In this document: positions 1-29,472 of the stretch, piece by piece
Layout: each line of letters starts with the position of its first letter
Position numbering within the stretch: the stretch's first letter is position 1
Virus record (IMG/VR): IMGVR_UViG_2537561980_000012
DNA length: 44,575 nucleotides
Strand: one strand, 5' to 3'
DNA from: a virus
Taxonomy: Duplodnaviria > Heunggongvirae > Uroviricota > Caudoviricetes
Notes under the pieces: model-generated
The model's input: only the letters and a program-made list of their open reading frames with translations
Database searches by the model: none
Told to the model about the DNA's origin: nothing
Made by a program: the position numbers and the translations under genes

Positions 1-774
1 TTACAACTTAAAGAGTTTCGCTTGCCCTGGATTAACAGCTTCGACGTAGTTTTTGACCCCTATTCTGTGCGGCTCATAATTGCTTGAATAGAAATCAATC
101 AGGAAGTCACTCATTTTCTGAGATGTGACTTTCATAACTCCCTTACTCAAAGTTAAATTAAACACGCTAATCTTTGACGATGGTGCCTGAGTTTTACTCA
201 TGTTGGCTTGATAACCAGATTTGCGCATTGCCACTAGTGCTTCGTCGTAAGCCGCTTGTAATTGGGCCAAATCGTTTGACGAGATGATCACATCATCCAT
301 AAACACACTTAGCTTGAGATCATGATGTTTGTTCAATCGGCGTAGTAAGCTACCAAAATAACTTTTATCTAAGCAGAGGGTTGCAAGTATTGGAGATTGA
401 ACAAAACCAAAAGGGAGGACATGCTTATGTGGACTATGGGACAAGTTTCTTACAGTTGAAAATGTTGAGATTTCCCGCGCTTGAGAATAGGTGAAGTAGC
501 TCTTTAGATCACGGGTGATACGACTACGGCTCGTTGACTGAAAAAATTGTTTAATATCAACAACGGCAAAAAAATCACTTTTTAAGTGTAATCTGGCAGC
601 TTTAAGATGCCCACCAGTTCTTAGATGGTAAAAATAGAGTGGCGGAATCCACTTGTTTCTGACAGCCTGAAGTATCTTCCCTCCGACTTTACGTGCCTCA
701 ACGCTTGGGACATAAACCCAAACCCCGGGCTTAATCTCAAATTTATCTTCCCACCTTTGAACTTCTATTGTCAT
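1..774 (-). CDS. Reverse transcriptase, retron-like, compact (257 aa); complete ORF with stop at 1-3
   Basis: RT motifs visible in translation: motif 1/2 'KPGVWVYVPSVEARKV..KILQAV', motif A 'VVDIKQFFQS' (cf. retron Ec86 'NIDLEDFFPS'), motif B' 'LPFGFVQSPILATLCLD' (cf. Ec86 'LPQGAPSSPKLANLICSKLD'), motif C 'FMDD' (plus 292-303). Low GC. Only about 14 aa precede motif 1, so the N-terminus is unusually short. Confidence 0.8.
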   Translation of the reverse strand: MTIEVQRWEDKFEIKPGVWVYVPSVEARKVGGKILQAVRNKWIPPLYFYHLRTGGHLKAARLHLKSDFFAVVDIKQFFQSTSRSRITRDLKSYFTYSQAREISTFSTVRNLSHSPHKHVLPFGFVQSPILATLCLDKSYFGSLLRRLNKHHDLKLSVFMDDVIISSNDLAQLQAAYDEALVAMRKSGYQANMSKTQAPSSKISVFNLTLSKGVMKVTSQKMSDFLIDFYSSNYEPHRIGVKNYVEAVNPGQAKLFKL

Positions 775-17847: not shown

Positions 17848-18498
17848 TCAGCGGCTGTCATTGCGCAGTCTGCGCTCCAGCTGCTGTTTGTCTTTTTTCA
17901 CGCCACAGCGGGGATCGAGCTGTAACGCATGGTTGAGATGATTAAGGGCGGAAGCCGGATTGCTTTCACTCAGGACAGCGCCAATCGCTTTATGCAGACG
18001 CGCCCGTGACTGGTCCGGCATATCCAGACCGTCTGTCAGCTCCAGCGTCTGCAGCAACAGATCGGCATCAAAGCCGGTAGCGGCAAGCATTGCGCTCTGC
18101 GCTGCATCTGCCATTTCCTCTGCCAGCACGGTCTGCACGTTGCGGTTACCCAGAGGCATCACCCAGCCATGACGCAGGGCATGACGCCCGATCTCCAGCG
18201 CCCCGGCATAATCTCCGGCATCAATGCGCCACAGCATCACGTACATCAGCACGTCATCCTGTTGAGCGCCTCCGGCAGCCAGGACGCCCTCCGCCCAGGC
18301 GGCATATTTCGGCAGCAGCTCCACCTTTATTTCCGCTTTTTTCACCGTGGACTGAACGCCCTTGAGACGGCGGCGGTCTTCCGACAGCTGCAGCAGCATC
18401 AGGTCATAGCCCGACGCGTGGCGAACACTGCCGCCCTCACGGGCGGCCTGTTCAGCCTGAACGCGCAGGCGATGCTGCCGTGCGGGACTCAGGCTCAT
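17848..18498 (-). CDS. M: Terminase small (endonuclease) subunit M
   Basis: 216 aa gpM-like. Confidence 0.85.
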   Translation of the reverse strand: MSLSPARQHRLRVQAEQAAREGGSVRHASGYDLMLLQLSEDRRRLKGVQSTVKKAEIKVELLPKYAAWAEGVLAAGGAQQDDVLMYVMLWRIDAGDYAGALEIGRHALRHGWVMPLGNRNVQTVLAEEMADAAQSAMLAATGFDADLLLQTLELTDGLDMPDQSRARLHKAIGAVLSESNPASALNHLNHALQLDPRCGVKKDKQQLERRLRNDSR

Positions 18499-20552: not shown

Positions 20553-22319
20553 ATGAACACCACACTGACACCCGCAGATCTCGATCCCCGTCGGCAGGCC
20601 ATGCTGCTGTACTTTCAGGGATACCGCGTAGCCCGCATTGCTGAAATGCTGGGCGAGAAAGTTGCAACCGTTCACAGCTGGAAAAAACGCGACAAGTGGG
20701 GTGACTATGGGCCGCTGGATCAGATGCAGCTCACCACCGCCGCACGCTACTGCCAGCTCATTATGAAGGAGCACAAAGAAGGGAAAGATTTCAAAGAGAT
20801 TGACCTGCTGGCGCGCCAGTCGGAGCGCCACGCGCGGATCGGCAAGTTTAACAATGGCGGCAACGAATCCGACTTAAACCCTAACGTCGCCAACCGCAAC
20901 AAAGGCCCGCGCCGTCAGCCGGAAAAGAATGTTTTCACCGATGAGCAGATTGAGAAGCTGGAAGAAATCTTCCATTCCTCCATGTTCAACTACCAGCGCC
21001 ACTGGTGGGAAGCCGGAAAAACCAACCGCATCCGCAACCTGCTGAAGTCACGCCAGATCGGCGCGACCTTTTACTTTGCCCGTGAAGCCCTGATTGACGC
21101 TCTGCTTACCGGACGTAACCAGATTTTTCTTTCCGCCAGCAAGGCACAGGCTCACGTCTTTAAGCAGTACATCATAGACTTCGCCAAAGAAGTCGAGGTG
21201 GAGCTGAAAGGCGATCCGATGGTGCTTCCTAACGGAGCCACGCTTTACTTCCTCGGCACCAATGCCCGCACGGCCCAGAGTTACCACGGCAACCTGTATC
21301 TGGATGAATATTTCTGGATACCGAAATTCCAGGAGCTGCGCAAAGTGGCTTCTGGTATGGCTATTCACAAAAAATGGCGACAAACCTATTTTTCCACGCC
21401 ATCCAGCCTGACACACAGTGCTTATCCGTTCTGGTCCGGTGCGCTGTTCAACCGTGGGCGCAATAAAGCCGATAAGGTGGACATCGACCTGTCCCACAGC
21501 AATCTGGCCCCCGGCCTGCTGTGCGCAGACGGGCAATACCGCCAGATAGTCACCGTGGAAGATGCAGTGCGCGGCGGATGTAACCTTTTCGACCTCGATC
21601 AGTTGCGCATGGAGTACAGCCCGGACGAATACCAGAACCTGCTGATGTGCGAGTTTGTGGACGATCTCGCGTCCGTGTTCCCGCTCAGCGAGCTGCAGGC
21701 GTGCATGGTGGACAGTTGGGAAGTCTGGACCGACTTTCATGCACTGGCCCTGCGCCCGTTTGGCTGGCGCGAAGTGTGGATCGGTTATGACCCGGCAAAA
21801 GGTACGCAAAACGGCGACAGCGCCGGGTGCGTGGTGGTGGCACCGCCAGCCGTGCCGGGCGGTAAGTTCCGCATTCTTGAGCGTCACCAGTGGCGCGGGA
21901 TGGACTTCCGCGCCCAGGCTAACGCCATCAAAAAACTGACTGAACAGTACAACGTGACATACATCGGTATCGACTCAACCGGCGTCGGTCACGGGGTTTA
22001 CGAGAACGTGAAAGCGTTTTTTCCTGCCGTCCGGGAGTTTGTCTACAACCCCAACGTTAAAAACGCCCTGGTACTCAAGGCCTACGACATTATTAGCCAC
22101 CGCCGCCTGGAGTTTGACGCCGGGCACACCGACATAGCGCAGTCCTTTATGGCAATCCGTCGCGCCACCACTGCCAGCGGCAACCGCCCGACCTATGAGG
22201 CCAGCCGCAGCGAAGAAGCCAGCCACGCCGATCTGGCCTGGGCAACAATGCACGCACTGTTTAACGAACCGCTGCAGGGCGAGTCCGCCAATACCAGCAA
22301 TATTGTGGAGATTTTTTGA
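20553..22319 (+). CDS. P: Terminase large (ATPase) subunit P
   Basis: 588 aa gpP-like; divergent from O as in P2. Confidence 0.9.
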   Translation: MNTTLTPADLDPRRQAMLLYFQGYRVARIAEMLGEKVATVHSWKKRDKWGDYGPLDQMQLTTAARYCQLIMKEHKEGKDFKEIDLLARQSERHARIGKFNNGGNESDLNPNVANRNKGPRRQPEKNVFTDEQIEKLEEIFHSSMFNYQRHWWEAGKTNRIRNLLKSRQIGATFYFAREALIDALLTGRNQIFLSASKAQAHVFKQYIIDFAKEVEVELKGDPMVLPNGATLYFLGTNARTAQSYHGNLYLDEYFWIPKFQELRKVASGMAIHKKWRQTYFSTPSSLTHSAYPFWSGALFNRGRNKADKVDIDLSHSNLAPGLLCADGQYRQIVTVEDAVRGGCNLFDLDQLRMEYSPDEYQNLLMCEFVDDLASVFPLSELQACMVDSWEVWTDFHALALRPFGWREVWIGYDPAKGTQNGDSAGCVVVAPPAVPGGKFRILERHQWRGMDFRAQANAIKKLTEQYNVTYIGIDSTGVGHGVYENVKAFFPAVREFVYNPNVKNALVLKAYDIISHRRLEFDAGHTDIAQSFMAIRRATTASGNRPTYEASRSEEASHADLAWATMHALFNEPLQGESANTSNIVEIF

Positions 22320-23344
22320 TGGGAAAGAGTAAGAAAAACCGCGCTGCGGCGACGAATCAGCTCAAGCATAAAAGCCAAACTTCAGCCGAAGCATTCAGCT
22401 TTGGCGATCCCGTTCCTGTTCTGGACCGCCGTGAACTGCTGGACTATGTGGAATGCGTACAGATGGACCGCTGGTATGAGCCGCCCGTCAGCTTTGACGG
22501 ACTGGCACGAACCTTCCGCGCCGCCGTGCATCACAGCTCACCAATTGCGGTGAAATGCAACATTCTGACCAGTACCTACATCCCTCACCCGCTGCTCAGC
22601 CAGCAGGCTTTTTCACGTTTTGTGCAGGACTATCTGGTATTTGGTAACGCCTACCTGGAGAAACGCACGAACCGCTTCGGTGAAGTTATCGCCCTTGAGC
22701 CTGCTCTGGCAAAATACACCCGACGCGGGTTAGACCTGGATACCTACTGGTTTGTGCAATACGGTATGACAACCCAGCCGTATCAGTTCACGAAAGGCAG
22801 CATTTTTCATCTGATGGAACCGGACATCAACCAGGAGATCTACGGCCTGCCAGGTTATCTTTCTGCCATTCCATCAGCCCTGCTCAACGAGTCCGCCACG
22901 CTGTTCCGCCGCAAGTATTACATTAACGGCAGTCATGCAGGCTTCATCATGTACATGACCGATGCCGCGCAGAACCAGGAGGATGTGAACAACCTCCGCA
23001 ATGCGATGAAAAGCGCCAAAGGCCCTGGCAACTTCCGCAACCTGTTTATGTACTCGCCTAACGGCAAAAAGGACGGGCTTCAGATCATCCCGTTGTCAGA
23101 AGTCGCGGCGAAGGATGAGTTTCTGAATATCAAAAATGTCAGCCGCGATGACATGATGGCAGCGCATCGTGTGCCGCCGCAAATGATGGGGATTATGCCG
23201 AATAATGTTGGGGGGTTTGGGGATGTGGAGAAGGCAAGCCGTGTGTTTGTTCGTAACGAACTAATACCATTGCAAAAAAGATTGGATGAGTTAAATAATT
23301 GGTTAGACGATAAAATAATAACATTTAACACATACAATTTTTAA
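22316..23344 (+). CDS. Q: Portal protein Q (last ~28 codons are AT-rich, cargo-like)
   Basis: 342 aa gpQ-like; ATGA overlap with P; abrupt composition change from about 23250. Confidence 0.9.
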   Translation: MMGKSKKNRAAATNQLKHKSQTSAEAFSFGDPVPVLDRRELLDYVECVQMDRWYEPPVSFDGLARTFRAAVHHSSPIAVKCNILTSTYIPHPLLSQQAFSRFVQDYLVFGNAYLEKRTNRFGEVIALEPALAKYTRRGLDLDTYWFVQYGMTTQPYQFTKGSIFHLMEPDINQEIYGLPGYLSAIPSALLNESATLFRRKYYINGSHAGFIMYMTDAAQNQEDVNNLRNAMKSAKGPGNFRNLFMYSPNGKKDGLQIIPLSEVAAKDEFLNIKNVSRDDMMAAHRVPPQMMGIMPNNVGGFGDVEKASRVFVRNELIPLQKRLDELNNWLDDKIITFNTYNF

Positions 23345-23345
23345 A

Positions 23346-23371
23346 GCAAGCCCTCAATCGAGGGCTTTTGA
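23346..23371. terminator. Hairpin terminator shared by convergent Q and the three-gene cargo operon
   Basis: Stem 'agccctc'/'gagggct' with loop 'aatc', followed by 'ttttg' on plus and 'gcttt' on minus. Confidence 0.6.
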
Positions 23372-23374
23372 AAA

Positions 23375-23896
23375 TCAGTTAATCAGTTTATTTAATGACT
23401 TAGACCACTTCTGTCCCAAATCATCAATATCAAAATCACCATCTCGCTGCTGCCATTTAAAAACTAAGGCTATAAGTTCACTCTTGAGGATTCTTTTATA
23501 ATAATCCTTAGATTTTAATTGCTCAAGTATATGTTCACCAACCTCAGCAAGCTTTCTATGATTTAATTCTGACAGATCTCGATGCAAATGGTTAACTGAT
23601 TTATACAAAGTATTTCCTTCAGTACGAGAAATATCAATACCTTTATCTTCAAACCATTGTGAATCAAGCCAAACCAAATCTATCGTAGCTGGCTCTGACA
23701 TCGTGGTGGCAAGGGCAACAATAATTTTCTCTACCGATTCATCTTGAAAATCGATAGAGTCAGAAACCCAAACTGACAAGGTGTTATTAGAGGTCCTTGT
23801 GCAACCTGTTATCGCGTCTGCGGATATATTGTCAGGTGCTCTACCTTTATTACATTCCCATTTACTATGGGATATTTTACGCAATAAATATGTCAT
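23375..23896 (-). CDS. Hypothetical protein, third gene of AT-rich cargo operon (173 aa)
   Basis: ATG overlaps the upstream stop as TAATG; low GC; no recognisable motif. Confidence 0.7.
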   Translation of the reverse strand: MTYLLRKISHSKWECNKGRAPDNISADAITGCTRTSNNTLSVWVSDSIDFQDESVEKIIVALATTMSEPATIDLVWLDSQWFEDKGIDISRTEGNTLYKSVNHLHRDLSELNHRKLAEVGEHILEQLKSKDYYKRILKSELIALVFKWQQRDGDFDIDDLGQKWSKSLNKLIN

Positions 23897-24543
23897 TATA
23901 GACTTCTCAAATATCCTATAACTGCTTCTTTATATTCTTCCACCCAATCAGCATCAAATTTCCTCATTCTTTCAAGGACTGGAATAAATGATTTTTCCCC
24001 CCAAGACTCAACTGCACGGATCGCTGCCTCAAATATAAGTTCATTCTCAAGAGAACAAACTCCCATAATCATAGCGTCAGCTTTATTACCTAACCATTCA
24101 TATTCAATAGTCGATGCAAAATTAATGAAGTTCTTTACATGTTGATCATTCATTCTGTACAATTGTACCCATGTCCTTTGAAAGGACTCTTGGAATAAAT
24201 CCTGATTTTTATCATACAAGAACTCCATGTAAATCTGTGTCTTGCTTATCTCGCCTTCAATGTAATCTTCTGAACATGTTAACTCAATTAGTCTAGAGGT
24301 ACATTTTGAAACCTGAATTTCAAAGTTCTGCTTAGTTGACGAACCTTGATTTATTGACTCAGTCTCTAATTGAAAGCCACCATTTGTTTTGCTATGTGAC
24401 AGCTCATTTCTTTTAATATCAGCGTAAATGATATTGTTACCATCATAATAATCAGAAAATGCACCTATTGAACTTACCCCATTTTTAAACTTAGGTAAGC
24501 CAAAAGGCTTTTCATCACTTATTATAAAACTATTCTTTACCAT
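23896..24543 (-). CDS. Hypothetical protein, second gene of AT-rich cargo operon (215 aa)
   Basis: Starts 9 nt after the upstream stop with 'aggtga' RBS; no recognisable motif. Confidence 0.7.
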   Translation of the reverse strand: MVKNSFIISDEKPFGLPKFKNGVSSIGAFSDYYDGNNIIYADIKRNELSHSKTNGGFQLETESINQGSSTKQNFEIQVSKCTSRLIELTCSEDYIEGEISKTQIYMEFLYDKNQDLFQESFQRTWVQLYRMNDQHVKNFINFASTIEYEWLGNKADAMIMGVCSLENELIFEAAIRAVESWGEKSFIPVLERMRKFDADWVEEYKEAVIGYLRSL

Positions 24544-24552
24544 AGCATCACC

Positions 24553-25248
24553 TTACAGAGAAGTGTAGCGTTGTAAATTATCAATAGTTTTAAGATTGTC
24601 CTGACACAATAACTCTAGCACGCGGATATATTCATCCCAACCAAACCGCATATATCCATTTTGAGGAAGAGTATTAGTATCAGTTTCAAATAATACGCAA
24701 TCACTTGGCATACCATTATTCAAAAATGGAGCTGAAATTTCAGCGCGTCTAATTGTACTAATACTATTAATTTCTTCCTGATACTCTTCAATATTTTTCC
24801 TTACAGCTATACGATTGTCCCACTCAAATGGATTAACACCTTTATAGGTAAACAAAGCATTGTAAAGCGAAAAGTAAACAGATTCATCCCCTTGATAGAT
24901 ACGTGAATTCAGAACAGCTATCCTATTTCCTTTTTTCATCGGAAATACGTTTTGTAGTTCCCTAGATATAGATAGAACCATTTCTGAAAACGCTTGAGGT
25001 TCCCCCCCCAAACCATTAAAAATGATTCCATGGCTAGGAAACTCGACTCTTACTGTTTGATTGGTATCTACCATGATAAGAATTTGCTTTTTCTCACCAG
25101 TGATGGCATTAATCTCCTGACCAAAAGTAGGTACAAATCCAAATTTTCCAATCTTATCAAGCATAGATCCAATAGTTAGTGTATTTGGAACTATATCATT
25201 ATTATTTGTGAAAAAATTAATCTGATGCGTCTGTTCAATCAATTTCAT
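24553..25248 (-). CDS. Hypothetical protein, first gene of AT-rich cargo operon (231 aa)
   Basis: ATG start with AGGAG 6 nt upstream; no recognisable motif. Confidence 0.7.
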   Translation of the reverse strand: MKLIEQTHQINFFTNNNDIVPNTLTIGSMLDKIGKFGFVPTFGQEINAITGEKKQILIMVDTNQTVRVEFPSHGIIFNGLGGEPQAFSEMVLSISRELQNVFPMKKGNRIAVLNSRIYQGDESVYFSLYNALFTYKGVNPFEWDNRIAVRKNIEEYQEEINSISTIRRAEISAPFLNNGMPSDCVLFETDTNTLPQNGYMRFGWDEYIRVLELLCQDNLKTIDNLQRYTSL

Positions 25249-25385
25249 AATTGCTCCTTGTTCAAAAAAACACCACCGCTCAGTGGTTCCTCTCTGTTAA
25301 AATATTCTAGTTCAACTTACTCTCAATATGAATCAAAGCTTAACCCTGGTTGGTAATTAAGTCACACTTTTCTTCATAGTAAGGG

Positions 25386-25404
25386 ATTTCGCGCGCTCGT
25401 ATCC
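25386..25404. other. cos-like cohesive-end site (P2/186 type)
   Basis: Minus strand reads 'GGCGTGGCGGGGATACGAG'; first 13 nt match the 186/P2 19-nt cohesive end as I recall it (GGCG[T/A]GGCGGGGAAAGCA). Confidence 0.5.
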
Positions 25405-25459
25405 CCGCCACGCCTGCCCGCTTTATGTAGTGGTTTTCATGCACCTGCATGAGCTACGC

Positions 25460-25483
25460 AAAAGCCCGCCAGTTCTGGCGGGC
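25460..25483 (-). terminator. Rho-independent terminator downstream of the DinI-like gene
   Basis: Stem 'gcccgccag'/'ctggcgggc' followed by a T-run on the minus strand. Confidence 0.6.
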
Positions 25484-25618
25484 CTTAGCAAAAACGATCC
25501 TCAAACGATCATGCGATCTCATGCGGCATAGACATGCACTACAGAGCTAACGCCTCGCAAGGGCTCGTTGTTCAACCTTGCTGACGCCAGAAGCAAGTTC
25601 AGACGCCAGCAACGTTTC

Positions 25619-25849
25619 TTAATGCAGCCAGCTGTCGTCTTCCCACACCTTCTGCATAATTTTCATCACTTGTTTTCTTTCTTCGTCCAGTTGCAGTCCG
25701 GTTAGTTCCACACCGTTAGAGCTACCTTTGCGAATGCGAATTACCGTTTTGGGATACAGGGGGCGCAGATTGCGGTAAAGCTCGGATTCAAGGGCGTCCA
25801 GGGTAGACTGGCTAATCTTCTGCTCTTTATCGATCATTATTTCAATGCG
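25619..25849 (-). CDS. DinI-family protein (Tum-like antirepressor C-terminal module)
   Basis: 'MRIEIMIDKEQ...LDALESELYRNLRPLYP...VWEDDSW' resembles E. coli DinI ('MRIEVTIAK...AGELSRRIQYAFP...TWESADDW'); GAGGTGA RBS before the ATG. Confidence 0.7.
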   Translation of the reverse strand, partial: RIEIMIDKEQKISQSTLDALESELYRNLRPLYPKTVIRIRKGSSNGVELTGLQLDEERKQVMKIMQKVWEDDSWLH

Positions 25850-25862
25850 CATAAAAGTCACC

Positions 25863-26051
25863 TCAGCTGATGACATCCATTGAGCGGTTGTATTCGTGGG
25901 TTCTGATTTTTGCCATGAGTTCATCAGTCAATTCAGAAACCCACTGCAGAGCCAGCCCCTTCTCTTCATCACTACACTCACTAGCCGCTACAAGCTTAAG
26001 AAAAAAATCAATGCGCTGGAGCTTCAAAGACTCCAAAAAATAGTCCTGCAT
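25863..26051 (-). CDS. Small SOS-regulated protein (62 aa), co-transcribed with the DinI-like gene
   Basis: ATG at 26051 with GGAGG RBS; LexA box about 45 bp upstream; its stop overlaps the RBS of the next gene. Confidence 0.5.
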   Translation of the reverse strand: MQDYFLESLKLQRIDFFLKLVAASECSDEEKGLALQWVSELTDELMAKIRTHEYNRSMDVIS

Positions 26052-26204: not shown

Positions 26205-28618
26205 TTAATACAGGTTCCGCCACTGATCATCTTCCTGCAAACGCTGGCTCCGATAGAAGATACGCAGGCCTGCTCCTGACGGAATACTGCCTCCGCGAAG
26301 GAGTAAATCGACCTCTTTCTCGCTGCCATCAAATCCTCTGGACTTCAGCTCATACACGAGCTGCAGTCGCTGATGGTCTGTAATTCGCTGTTTGTAGTCT
26401 TTACGCCGTTTCGGTTTCACCAGGCATAACCTTGCTGCCAGTTCCCGGCGCTCTTTTTTGCTCATACTGTGCAGGTAATCGTGCAACTCCTTGTCATCCA
26501 TGCTGGTAATGTCCGTTCTGGGGTCCCCATCAGCTGATTTATCTTTCTCCTGTTGGTTCAAATTTTCAGCAAGGGGACAGTTATTGCCACGAGTCCAAGG
26601 GGCGCAAGCGCCCTGGTCGGCTGCCGCCTCCTGAACGTCAACGGCTTTACGAACCATTTTCCACTTCACTGCATGAGTGCAGATCTTGCCCTCTGCAATG
26701 GGTGACCAGATGCCATAAATACGAATACCGTGATCGCCATAGGCGGTCGGCTCTTCGTTGATTTCATAAGCGGTTCTGATGAGGTGATATTTACGGGGAA
26801 CCAGTACGCCGCCCTGCTTCATGATGTAGGTGGCAAAGCAACCAGCATCAGCTGCAGCCAGAATGGCATCAAGGCGCTGGTTATCCAGTACCGGCGCACC
26901 TGCTTTTTTGTCACCCTGTTGCCTTGCCGCCTGACCAGCCAGCAATCGCAGTTCACGGTAAGCCTGACGCCCCGGAATGCCAAAGAAGCGGAATTGCTGA
27001 ACACGATGCAGAGACGCCCAGGCATTAACGTATTCAGCGTTATCACGCAGAGATTTACCCGTTTCCTTGCTGATCTCGCCAGCCAGACCACGCCCGTCAA
27101 TGTTCTTACTGATATATTTCGCGATGTAGCTTGTCGGCGTTCCTTTGCGCGGGTTAATCAACTCAGACTTAAAGCGCGGCCCAGTGTTATTGCCCAGCTC
27201 CTCGCGGTCTTCACGGATGGCAAACTTACGCAGTAATGCAGTGATGGCGCGGCGGCTTTTTTGCGCATAAAACACAACAGGTGCCAGTGAACTGTACCGT
27301 CATGATGCGGCTCAGCCACCCGCACGCCATACCAGCGCAATCCGGCTTTGTGCATCGCCTTACGAAATGCAGCAAACATGCCGACCAGATAGTCGCTGCT
27401 TTGTCTTACCGTCGAGTTTGTCCAGGTCGGGTTGGGTCTGCCGTTATTGAGCGTGGAATGGAAACGCGACGGACAGGTGATAGTGTAGAAAACGGCGCAG
27501 TCACCGCGCATTTCCGCGATAAGCTCCAGACCTTTAACACAGGCCATCATCTCATTGCGGCGATGCGCCGGGTTGCTGCTGCTGGCGTTTACCACATCTT
27601 CCATATCCAGCGTGTCGCCGTCTTCGTTCACCAGTTCATGAGAACGGAAAAACTCCAGCGACTTACGGCGCTGCTCACGTTTATGCATCACGGCTTCATA
27701 GCTGACATAGGGGGATGCTTTTTTGCTGACCAGGCAGACAGCACGCAACTGCTCTTCCCGCCATTCGCAACGCATCTTCCATAATTTCCGATACCACCAG
27801 TCGGCACACAACATACGCGCCAGCGAACCCGGAATGAGTTCATAGGGCACGGGTTTACGGCGGTTTCTTTTCCGACGGAGTTGCTCAAACGCAGGCGGAA
27901 TAACATCCAGACGCAGGGTTTCCGCTGCCACCTTTTCCCATGTTTTGCGGATTTCTTCTGGCTTAACGTCATCGGTGGCATACAAATCACCACAAGCGGC
28001 ATCAAGGCACATGCTCATATGCGCAGCGACAAGGGTGGACAGGCGCTTCACCTGATCCTGACTCATTTCAGGCAGGATAAGCAGGCCATCCAGCCCTTCA
28101 TGGCTTGCCATAAAGCGAAAAGAAGTGGATAGCTGACAGTCGCGGACATGCTCCAGTCGTTCCAGACATGGCTTAATCGTCTCACGCAAATAGCGGGAAT
28201 AAGCCTTTGGCCTGCCCAGGCTGCTGAAATATTCAATACGTTGCATCAGCGGCTTGCTGATATGGGAAGGCTGGGCGTTGACGTCAGCCAGAATGACCAT
28301 GTCCGGATTAAAACGCTGCTGCTCATGCGCCAGCTTTGCCCGGCTAATGAGCTTATCCTGCTCCATTTCGCGCTGGACAGGATCACGGGATTCATTAAAG
28401 AAATAACGCTCCCAGACCTGATCACTCAGTGCCTCGCGGCGCAGTTGTTCCTGCTCGTTATCGGCAGCGTACAGAGTGATCAGGTTTGAAAGTGCAGAAA
28501 CCGGCGCAACTTCCGCCGGGTCCAGATAAGGGTTAATGGCCTTTTTTGGGCTGTTCCATGAGAATGCTGCGGCGACCTCGTTAAAGCCGCTGCAGTTGTT
28601 CATATCAGCATGGCTCAT
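26205..28618 (-). CDS. A: Replication initiation protein A (rolling-circle HUH endonuclease), interrupted by a 1-nt deletion in a T6/A6 run (plus 27257-27262)
   Basis: '[17 protein letters not shown]' then, after a frame change, '[12 protein letters not shown]...[12 protein letters not shown]', colinear with P2 A; adding one A in 'cgcaaaaaagcc' restores the frame. Confidence 0.85.
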
Positions 28619-29472
28619 GCACGCACTCCGTACACGGCGGAACAATCCACGCCACGCGAAGGATCAAATCCTATCCAGCAGCGCGGCCCGGCAACAGCAA
28701 TGATTTCTGTTGCAGATTTACTCTCACCAGCTGCCACGCCGATGCTGCGTTTTGCCTTGATGTAGTGGTGAGTAAAATTGCGATACAGCGAACGGATCAG
28801 GGATGTGTCACTGTTAGAAATAATGACCGGATATCCTTCTGATGACCAATGTTCAAGAACAGATGCCAGGTGATACTGGTCATCTTCAGTGAAACCATCA
28901 GTGTGATAGCCGGAAAACGTACCGTCATAAGGCGGATCGCAATACACCACATCCCCCGCGTGCAACATCGCCAGCGTTTCATCGAAGCTGGCGCAGATAA
29001 ACGTTGCCCGCTGGGCTTTTACTGCAAATGCACGAATTTCTTTTTCAGGAAAATACGGATTTTTATAATTACCGTAGGGAATGTTGAAATGCCCGCTCTT
29101 GTTATAGCGACATAAACCACGGTAACCGTGACGATTGAGATACAGGAAATATATCGCTTTCATAAAATCAGTAATTTCAGTTGAGTAATTAAACTCCTGC
29201 CTTATGTTGTAATAATCCATCTCCCTGTTTGCGTTCTCAAATAAAACTCTGGCGCGAGATATAAACGATTCACAATCAGCGGCAACCTTTTTATAGAGGT
29301 TGATTAAATCAGGATTAATATCCGCAACCAGATAGCTGGGATAATCCGTCTCCATCATCACAGCACAGGAACCCGCGAAAGGTTCAACCAGTCGCGGGCC
29401 AGCAGGAAGATGTTTTTTCAGTTCGGACATTATGGCAGTTTTATTTCCCGCCCATTTCAGGATGGTGCTCAT
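28615..29472 (-). CDS. dam: DNA adenine methyltransferase (Dam family)
   Basis: 'LKWAGNK' and 'DPPY' motifs; ATGA-coupled to the upstream zinc-finger gene and to A. Confidence 0.85.

Follow-up and report, generated by a model that had tools for sequence, protein, structure and literature searches.

A predicted cos site bordering a three-gene cargo slot in a Fels-2-type P2-family prophage

Accessory DNA next to cos in P2-like elements

In 186-related prophages, retrons take the place of the DNA from the cohesive-end site (cos) to the terminator of the portal gene (Dodd and Egan 1996, cited in PMC6868368). The position between cosL and Q was suggested as a hotspot in P2-like genomes (PMC5694545), and a cos-proximal hotspot between gpA and gpQ has been described (PMC9122126, PMC9519451). 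The present analysis concerns a cos-like 19-nt sequence and the three genes between it and the portal gene Q in the virus record IMGVR_UViG_2537561980_000012, the whole 44,575-nt stretch of which is referred to here as the window. The conserved island at 25390-25540, in which this 19-mer lies, is very probably the cos packaging site of a Fels-2-type P2-family prophage in which the ~160 bp on the Q side have been replaced by a three-gene cargo.

The geometry is the same as that of retrons Ec67 and Ec86 of 186-related prophages, where the accessory DNA is also a replacement according to PMC5694545 and PMC6868368. Unlike these prophages, the window carries an uncharacterised three-gene cassette and no retron, and its backbone is of the Fels-2 type with a 19-mer ending in TACGAG rather than AAGCAT. 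Fels-2, SEN8 and Cartapus (Felsduovirus / Elveevirus) have the same 19-mer followed by CGCGCG and the same right-flank island, and they also carry accessory genes between cos and the portal gene, with one gene each in Fels-2 and Cartapus and two in SEN8. SEN8, which was isolated as infectious particles, bears the same 19-mer with two genes before the portal gene. The cargo itself differs, as it encodes a 565-aa hypothetical protein in Fels-2, a hypothetical protein and an HNH endonuclease in SEN8, and a DUF4145 protein in Cartapus.

The gpA-gpQ hotspot of P2 (Rousset et al. 2022; Vassallo et al. 2022; old/tin in P2) occupies the same interval, which is highly variable and often anti-phage in content. 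In P2, however, it is the A side of cos that holds the cargo (orf91, tin and old), and the gap from Q to cos is 167 bp, whereas the cargo of the window lies on the Q side and its A side is minimal. The published definition of this hotspot makes no distinction between the two sides of cos. In the psu-int hotspot of P4, the cargo likewise starts ~7 bp past the left-end cut and a conserved flank is found on the right-end side only (PMC9122126, Fig. 1 legend). P4 differs in being a satellite without Q, and the TACGAG variant of the 19-mer, sought as independent support for packaging, was found in none of the 80 P4-like loci sampled through Psu. A looser analogy may be drawn with lambda cos (cosN plus a one-sided cosB), where staggered nicks likewise produce cohesive ends and recognition is by elements confined to one side. 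The two sites are unrelated in sequence, and the overhang is 12 nt in lambda as against 19 nt predicted here. The arrangement in the window is typical of its lineage, has already been described and is nothing new in kind, with the lineage bias in the side of cos that is used being a minor refinement.

The 19-mer and the conserved island

The 13-mer GGCGTGGCGGGGA, with which the cohesive end of 186 starts, has a single occurrence in the window (25402-25414, minus strand). This strand reads GGCGTGGCGGGGATACGAG from 25414 down to 25396, followed by CGCGCG from 25395 down to 25390. By homology to 186, the 19 nt at 25396-25414 (minus strand) are the predicted cohesive-end sequence, and they are identical in SEN8, Fels-2 and Cartapus. 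When compared with the cohesive ends annotated in the phage records (186, GGCGTGGCGGGGAAAGCAT; P2, GGCGAGGCGGGGAAAGCAC), the 19-mer matches that of 186 at 13/13 of the first 13 nt and at 15/19 in all, and that of P2 at 12/13 of the first 13 nt. A preliminary description of this DNA had reported a 13-nt match to the 186/P2 cohesive end, which is exact for 186 and has one mismatch for P2. It had placed the site at 25386-25404, a position shifted 10 nt to the left that covers 9 nt of the 19-mer together with CGCGCG and AAAT.

As in other members of the P2 family, the predicted cohesive end is G+C-rich, 19 nt long and starts with GGCG(A/T)GGCGGGGA. The record of Salmonella phage SEN8 has exactly this sequence, at 1..19, as a 'putative cos site', and the SEN8 announcement gives cos as ggcgtggcggggatacgag, assigned by annotation. 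No match to the full 19-mer of 186 or P2 with three or fewer mismatches was found in the window, which is consistent with the window variant differing from that of 186 at four positions. Taken alone, the 13-mer match is modest evidence because at least one match with no more than one mismatch was found in 8 of 100 shuffles (chance expectation 0.08).

The cos-like site is single-copy in the window and is located in the interval from the portal gene Q to the A/tum region, in a prophage that encodes the gpP and gpM terminase proteins. The distance from the Q stop codon (23344) to the 19-mer is 2,051 bp, in line with the ~2 kb given previously. The corresponding gap between the 19-mer and the portal gene is 167 bp in the P2 record and 176 bp in the 186 record, close to the 'about 160 bp' that the preliminary description had stated for P2.

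The right and left ends of P2, 186, P4 and SEN8 were joined and then aligned with the window and Fels-2. A 56-bp cos core was delimited at 25389-25444 by its match to 186, P2, P4 and SEN8, the identities being 43/56, 42/56, 42/56 and 54/56 respectively. We take this core to be the counterpart of the 55-bp P2/P4 cos core of Ziermann and Calendar. All six aligned sequences have TGCATnAAAACC(8 nt)AAGnGGGCn in common, followed by the 19-mer and then nGCGCG, so that the core has the right flank TGCATnAAAACC..AAGCGGGC, the 19-mer and GCGCGC as they are found in P2, 186 and P4. In Smith-Waterman local alignments with the joined cos regions, the 151-bp island scored 46 against 186, 38 against P4 and 31 against P2, whereas shuffled controls scored 9 +/- 1.4 with a maximum of 16. 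The site was accepted as cos-like because its flanks match those of the 186, P2 and P4 cos far above the shuffles.

This homology to 186 and P2 is one-sided, being strong on the right-end (A/tum) side and limited to 6-7 bp (CGCGCG) on the Q side. CGCGCG at 25390-25395 is the only conserved Q-side (left-end) flank in the alignment of P2, 186, P4, SEN8, Fels-2 and the window, and between lineages this flank is common no further than GCGCG. An alignment to the P2 and 186 cos flanks had been proposed as a check on the site, and the sequence does align with them, though on one side.

Per-column conservation among 70 distinct related sequences delimits an island of 6 bp, the 19-mer and ~126 bp of right-end flank at 25390-25540. 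Identity per column is at least 90% from 25390 to ~25540, falls to chance level to the left of 25390 and is about 40% to the right of ~25540. The island of the window does not deviate from the lineage consensus. Because the island is at least 90% conserved in these loci while both of its flanks are variable, purifying selection on a non-coding site is implied.

Several repeats were found within the island. An inverted repeat (GCAAAAGCCCGCCAG / CTGGCGGGCCTTAGC) occupies 25458-25489; its CGCCAG..CTGGCG element is also present in 186, SEN8 and Fels-2 and absent in P2, and P4 has a looser CGCGCC..GGCGCG equivalent. As judged from its sequence, this repeat may terminate the transcript from the DinI side, bind a protein, or do both. 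Three CATGC(G/A) repeats at 25510-25540, two more copies at 25438-25452 and a direct repeat of AAACGATC (two copies, 25492-25510) are candidate gpM binding sites, and clusters of TGCAT/GCATG occur at the corresponding positions in P2, 186 and P4. Searches of the island found no Rfam family, and no open reading frame (ORF) was found within 25390-25540. In the identical region of Escherichia coli CV839-06, PGAP has a pseudo-coding sequence ('hypothetical protein, internal stop') at ~25340-25522 over the island, and several phage records likewise call a 'hypothetical protein' there.

Occupancy and content of the Q-side slot

The 80 best IMG/VR loci were collected for each of three portal-protein queries, namely Q of the window (94-96% identity), Q of P2 and W of 186. 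Among the window-type loci, the 19-mer was found after Q in 75/80 (CTCGTATCCCCGCCACGCC in 72 and ATCG... in 3), while the other five loci are cut off before this point. In these 75 loci, the 19-mer lies 159 to 3,497 bp from the Q stop codon. A short Q-to-cos gap was observed in two of the 75 Fels-2-type loci (159-161 bp), the other 73 having a longer gap of 518-3,497 bp. The P2 type has a short gap in 77/79 loci (156-170 bp) and a longer one in 2/79, and the 186 type has a short gap in 61/79 (165-216 bp) and a longer one in 18/79 (380-1,680 bp). Use of the Q-side slot therefore shows a strong lineage-dependent tendency, with the Fels-2 type using it nearly always and the P2 type nearly never. 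The tail of the 19-mer was also observed to be lineage-specific, with TACGAG in the Fels-2 type, AAGCAT or TAGCAC in the 186 type and AAGCAC in the P2 type.

Two 'empty' relatives (L032 and L084) have a 161-bp spacer with a terminator between Q and cos. No counterpart of this spacer was found in the window at 23300-25420, and as it left no trace there, the cargo has replaced it. The preliminary description had the cargo inserted between the portal gene and cos. Its placement is supported by the homology of the flanks to the 186, P2 and P4 cos and by the absence of the cargo from the 80 relatives, and the cargo does sit in a slot; the event itself is better described as the replacement of a ~160-bp spacer than as a simple insertion. 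The locus thus has the features of a hotspot, with conserved flanks, unrelated content among close relatives, and cargo in place of the short, terminator-containing spacer that would otherwise link the portal gene to cos.

On the other side of the island, the distance from cos to the end of gene A is 791 bp in the window, which is the minimum, and 792-5097 bp in its relatives. This distance is 0.9-5.7 kb in P2-type loci and 0.79-5.1 kb in Fels-2-type loci, and in all three lineages this A-side slot varies. What has been published as the gpA-gpQ hotspot is in fact two slots parted by the cos island, of which the window prophage uses the Q-side slot only.

P4-like satellites show the same one-sidedness. 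The 80 loci retrieved through Psu (L256-L335) have the conserved right flank, the 19-mer and (T/C)GCGC(G/A)(C/T), followed by unrelated DNA, the switch to variable DNA occurring ~7 bp past the left-end cut. P4 is packaged by the P2 terminase, and only the cos core is common to both (PMC9122126). The left flank appears dispensable in the P2 family because the satellites become variable at this point. The 19-mer variants observed in the satellites end in AAGCAC (60 loci), GAGCAT (11 loci, nine prefixed with GGCGT and two with GGCGA) or GGAGCAT (two loci), among others.

The variable slot of the window extends over 2,045 bp from the Q stop codon to the cos island (23345-25389), as defined by the boundaries of per-column conservation. 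On the Q side, conservation holds up to the stop codon at 23344 and is lost abruptly beyond it. The possibility that the AT-rich 3' end of Q belongs to the inserted DNA was considered and rejected, given that relatives share 94-96% identity with the Q protein across its full 342 residues and that nucleotide conservation continues to the stop codon. The slot contains three tightly packed minus-strand ORFs of low G+C content, as the preliminary description had it in speaking of a three-gene operon between Q and the cos-like site. Cargo gene 1 (24553-25248; 231 aa) is followed after 9 nt by gene 2 (23896-24543; 215 aa; phrog_21208), which overlaps gene 3 (23375-23896; 173 aa; phrog_10743) by 1 nt, all three being of unknown function. 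Only 30 bp separate the Q stop codon from the nearest of these ORFs, which leaves no other cos next to Q. The cargo was judged to be foreign because of its low G+C content (33-37%) against that of the backbone (50-60%).

No match to the cargo DNA was found in the phage collection, nor in the 80 related IMG/VR loci with conserved Q and cos flanks. The whole block is present in 4/5,426 complete E. coli genomes, from pigs and cattle, and the flanks occur with different content between them in ~1,283 of the 5,426. Searches of Pfam, NCBIfam and PADLOC-DB 2.0 (E<=0.01) with the three cargo proteins gave no matches, and sequence searches of the PDB gave nothing meaningful. The proteins match the PHROGs families 19817, 21208 and 10743, all with unknown function, and several of their Arg, Glu and Asp residues are invariant, which is a lead only. 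Two of the three proteins make up system 83 in Table S5B of Rousset et al. 2022, listed with 43 occurrences and without domain annotation, and with a shorter form of the gene 3 protein. No evidence was found that system 83 is among the systems cloned and tested in that study. From these sequence data, the cargo is probably an accessory cassette and most likely an anti-phage one.

A homologous three-gene unit (231, 188 and 180 aa) was observed in a chromosome of Acinetobacter baumannii (GCA_030449315.1; L092, 6001-7788). Its first protein is 42% identical to that of the window, and the unit sits among housekeeping genes without phage context, which argues for the cargo being an independently mobile unit.

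Promoter-like hexamers upstream of the cargo operon were found at 25299-25332 on the minus strand as consensus matches alone, 64-97 bp inside the predicted left genome end. Between them and the start codon of cargo gene 1, a terminator-like hairpin (ACCACTGAGCGGTGGT then GTTTTTTT) is present at 25272-25287 (minus strand), which could be an attenuator or a leader structure. A second hairpin (AGCCCTC-AATC-GAGGGCT then TTT) lies directly after the Q stop codon at 23349-23366; it was read from the sequence, was not flagged by the scan, and is a part of the cargo module that is not conserved.

Alternative explanations, packaging and significance

The window contains a P2-family prophage in reversed orientation with respect to the standard P2 map. 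The large terminase subunit P (20553-22319, plus strand; Pfam Terminase_6N, Terminase_6C and Terminase_5) is followed by Q (22316-23344, plus strand; Pfam Phage_portal), which PGAP annotates as 'phage portal protein' in the identical region of CV839-06. Upstream of P and Q lie the minus-strand scaffold, capsid and small-terminase genes, the last of these encoding the terminase endonuclease/small subunit, a gpM homologue (17848-18498; so annotated by PGAP in the identical region of CV839-06). Beyond cos, on its A side, a DinI/Tum-like gene (25619-25924, minus strand; Pfam DinI) is followed rightward by the replication gene A and then the integrase. Gene A (26205-28645) was observed to be split into two reading frames near 27250, with residues 13-459 of Fels-2 A matching frame -1 of the window and residues 453-809 matching frame -3. 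The split is due to a 1-bp deletion (CGGCGG-CTTTTTT) in comparison with E. coli CV839-06, the annotation of which has an intact A. The frameshift either is genuine and inactivates the gene or is an artefact of assembly.

Several points weigh against taking the island as the cos at which this prophage is packaged. The mapped cos sites are those of 186, P2 and P4, and the cos of SEN8, which has the TACGAG variant, was assigned by annotation. The exact cut positions are assumed, and the last 6 nt of the 19-mer are unlike those of 186 at 4/6 positions. The role of the TGCAT repeats as terminase binding sites is our own suggestion. The IMG/VR counts, taken from the 80 best hits per query, include near-duplicate prophages that are not independent, and they indicate a tendency, not a frequency. 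Finally, the deletion in gene A may leave this copy of the prophage unable to replicate, in which case its cos would go unused unless a helper supplies the functions.

This last point leads to the explanation that the site is a genuine cos by descent but a fossil, belonging to a defective prophage copy that is packaged only with helper functions. The split of gene A relative to CV839-06 is what speaks for it. We nevertheless consider this improbable, as the island is identical to the lineage consensus and the terminase, portal and head genes are intact, while the deletion is a single-base difference in a homopolymer-adjacent run that could be an assembly error and the near-identical prophage of CV839-06 has an intact A.

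It is very unlikely that the 19-mer is a relic or a chance match and that the working packaging site lies elsewhere. The shuffles that matched the 13-mer at no more than one mismatch, the last six bases that resemble neither 186 nor P2, and a cos assignment for the TACGAG variant that rests on annotation and homology could all be read in this way. However, the window holds no second match, and the cargo ORFs begin 30 bp from the Q stop codon, which leaves no space for a cos-like site next to Q. Extended homology to the 186, P2 and P4 cos far above shuffles and an island kept at 90% or more in 70 distinct loci while its flanks vary also speak against this reading. The idea that the island is a small gene, for a protein or a small RNA, rather than a cis-acting packaging site has the PGAP pseudo-coding sequence and the 'hypothetical protein' calls of phage records on its side, but it can practically be dismissed since the island has no open frame, no codon periodicity in its uniform conservation and no Rfam family, and is homologous to experimentally defined cos ends.

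Phages of the P2 family package from circular monomers. With the island as cos, the terminase (gpP and gpM) would, by homology, make staggered nicks that give a 19-nt 5' overhang GGCGTGGCGGGGATACGAG, the predicted nicks being at 25415/25414 on the minus strand and 25395/25396 on the plus strand. GCGGGC and GCGCGC, situated ~1 nt outside each nick, may serve the nuclease as mirror-image half-sites. The TGCAT/CATGC repeats, the inverted repeat and the 30-bp core flank, all on the right-end (A/DinI) side, would act as terminase recognition elements in a manner like lambda cosB, with the TGCAT repeats as putative recognition elements of the small subunit. The Q-side flank would hold no packaging information, which would make the ~160 bp between the portal-gene terminator and cos a free slot and would allow cargo to come as close as 6-7 bp to the site. 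The operon of the window reads from the cos side towards Q, and in linear virion DNA the cargo would form the first 2 kb of the left end.

A more far-reaching model can be offered as a speculation that is unlikely to hold as a whole. In it, the island of the Fels-2-type lineage would be the fixed joint of two independently exchangeable cargo slots, and the sharp Q-side boundary, which lies 6-7 bp from the nick and recurs in P4 satellites, would result from cohesive-end-mediated exchange, that is, cos cutting and re-annealing between co-resident elements with one crossover in Q. In this model the cassette could also be a new anti-phage system, the first protein of which may have a guanidino-kinase-like or TBP-like fold.

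For annotation, the predicted packaging site and the limits of the accessory slot (23345-25389) are fixed for the window prophage, and the 'hypothetical protein' pseudo-coding sequence over the cos island is probably an artefact of a strongly conserved non-coding site. The cargo, as predicted from its sequence, is a rare candidate defence cassette that would be directly clonable. For the biology of the P2 family the result is a small refinement, in that the gpA-gpQ hotspot consists of two slots around a ~150-bp island which are used differently by lineage.
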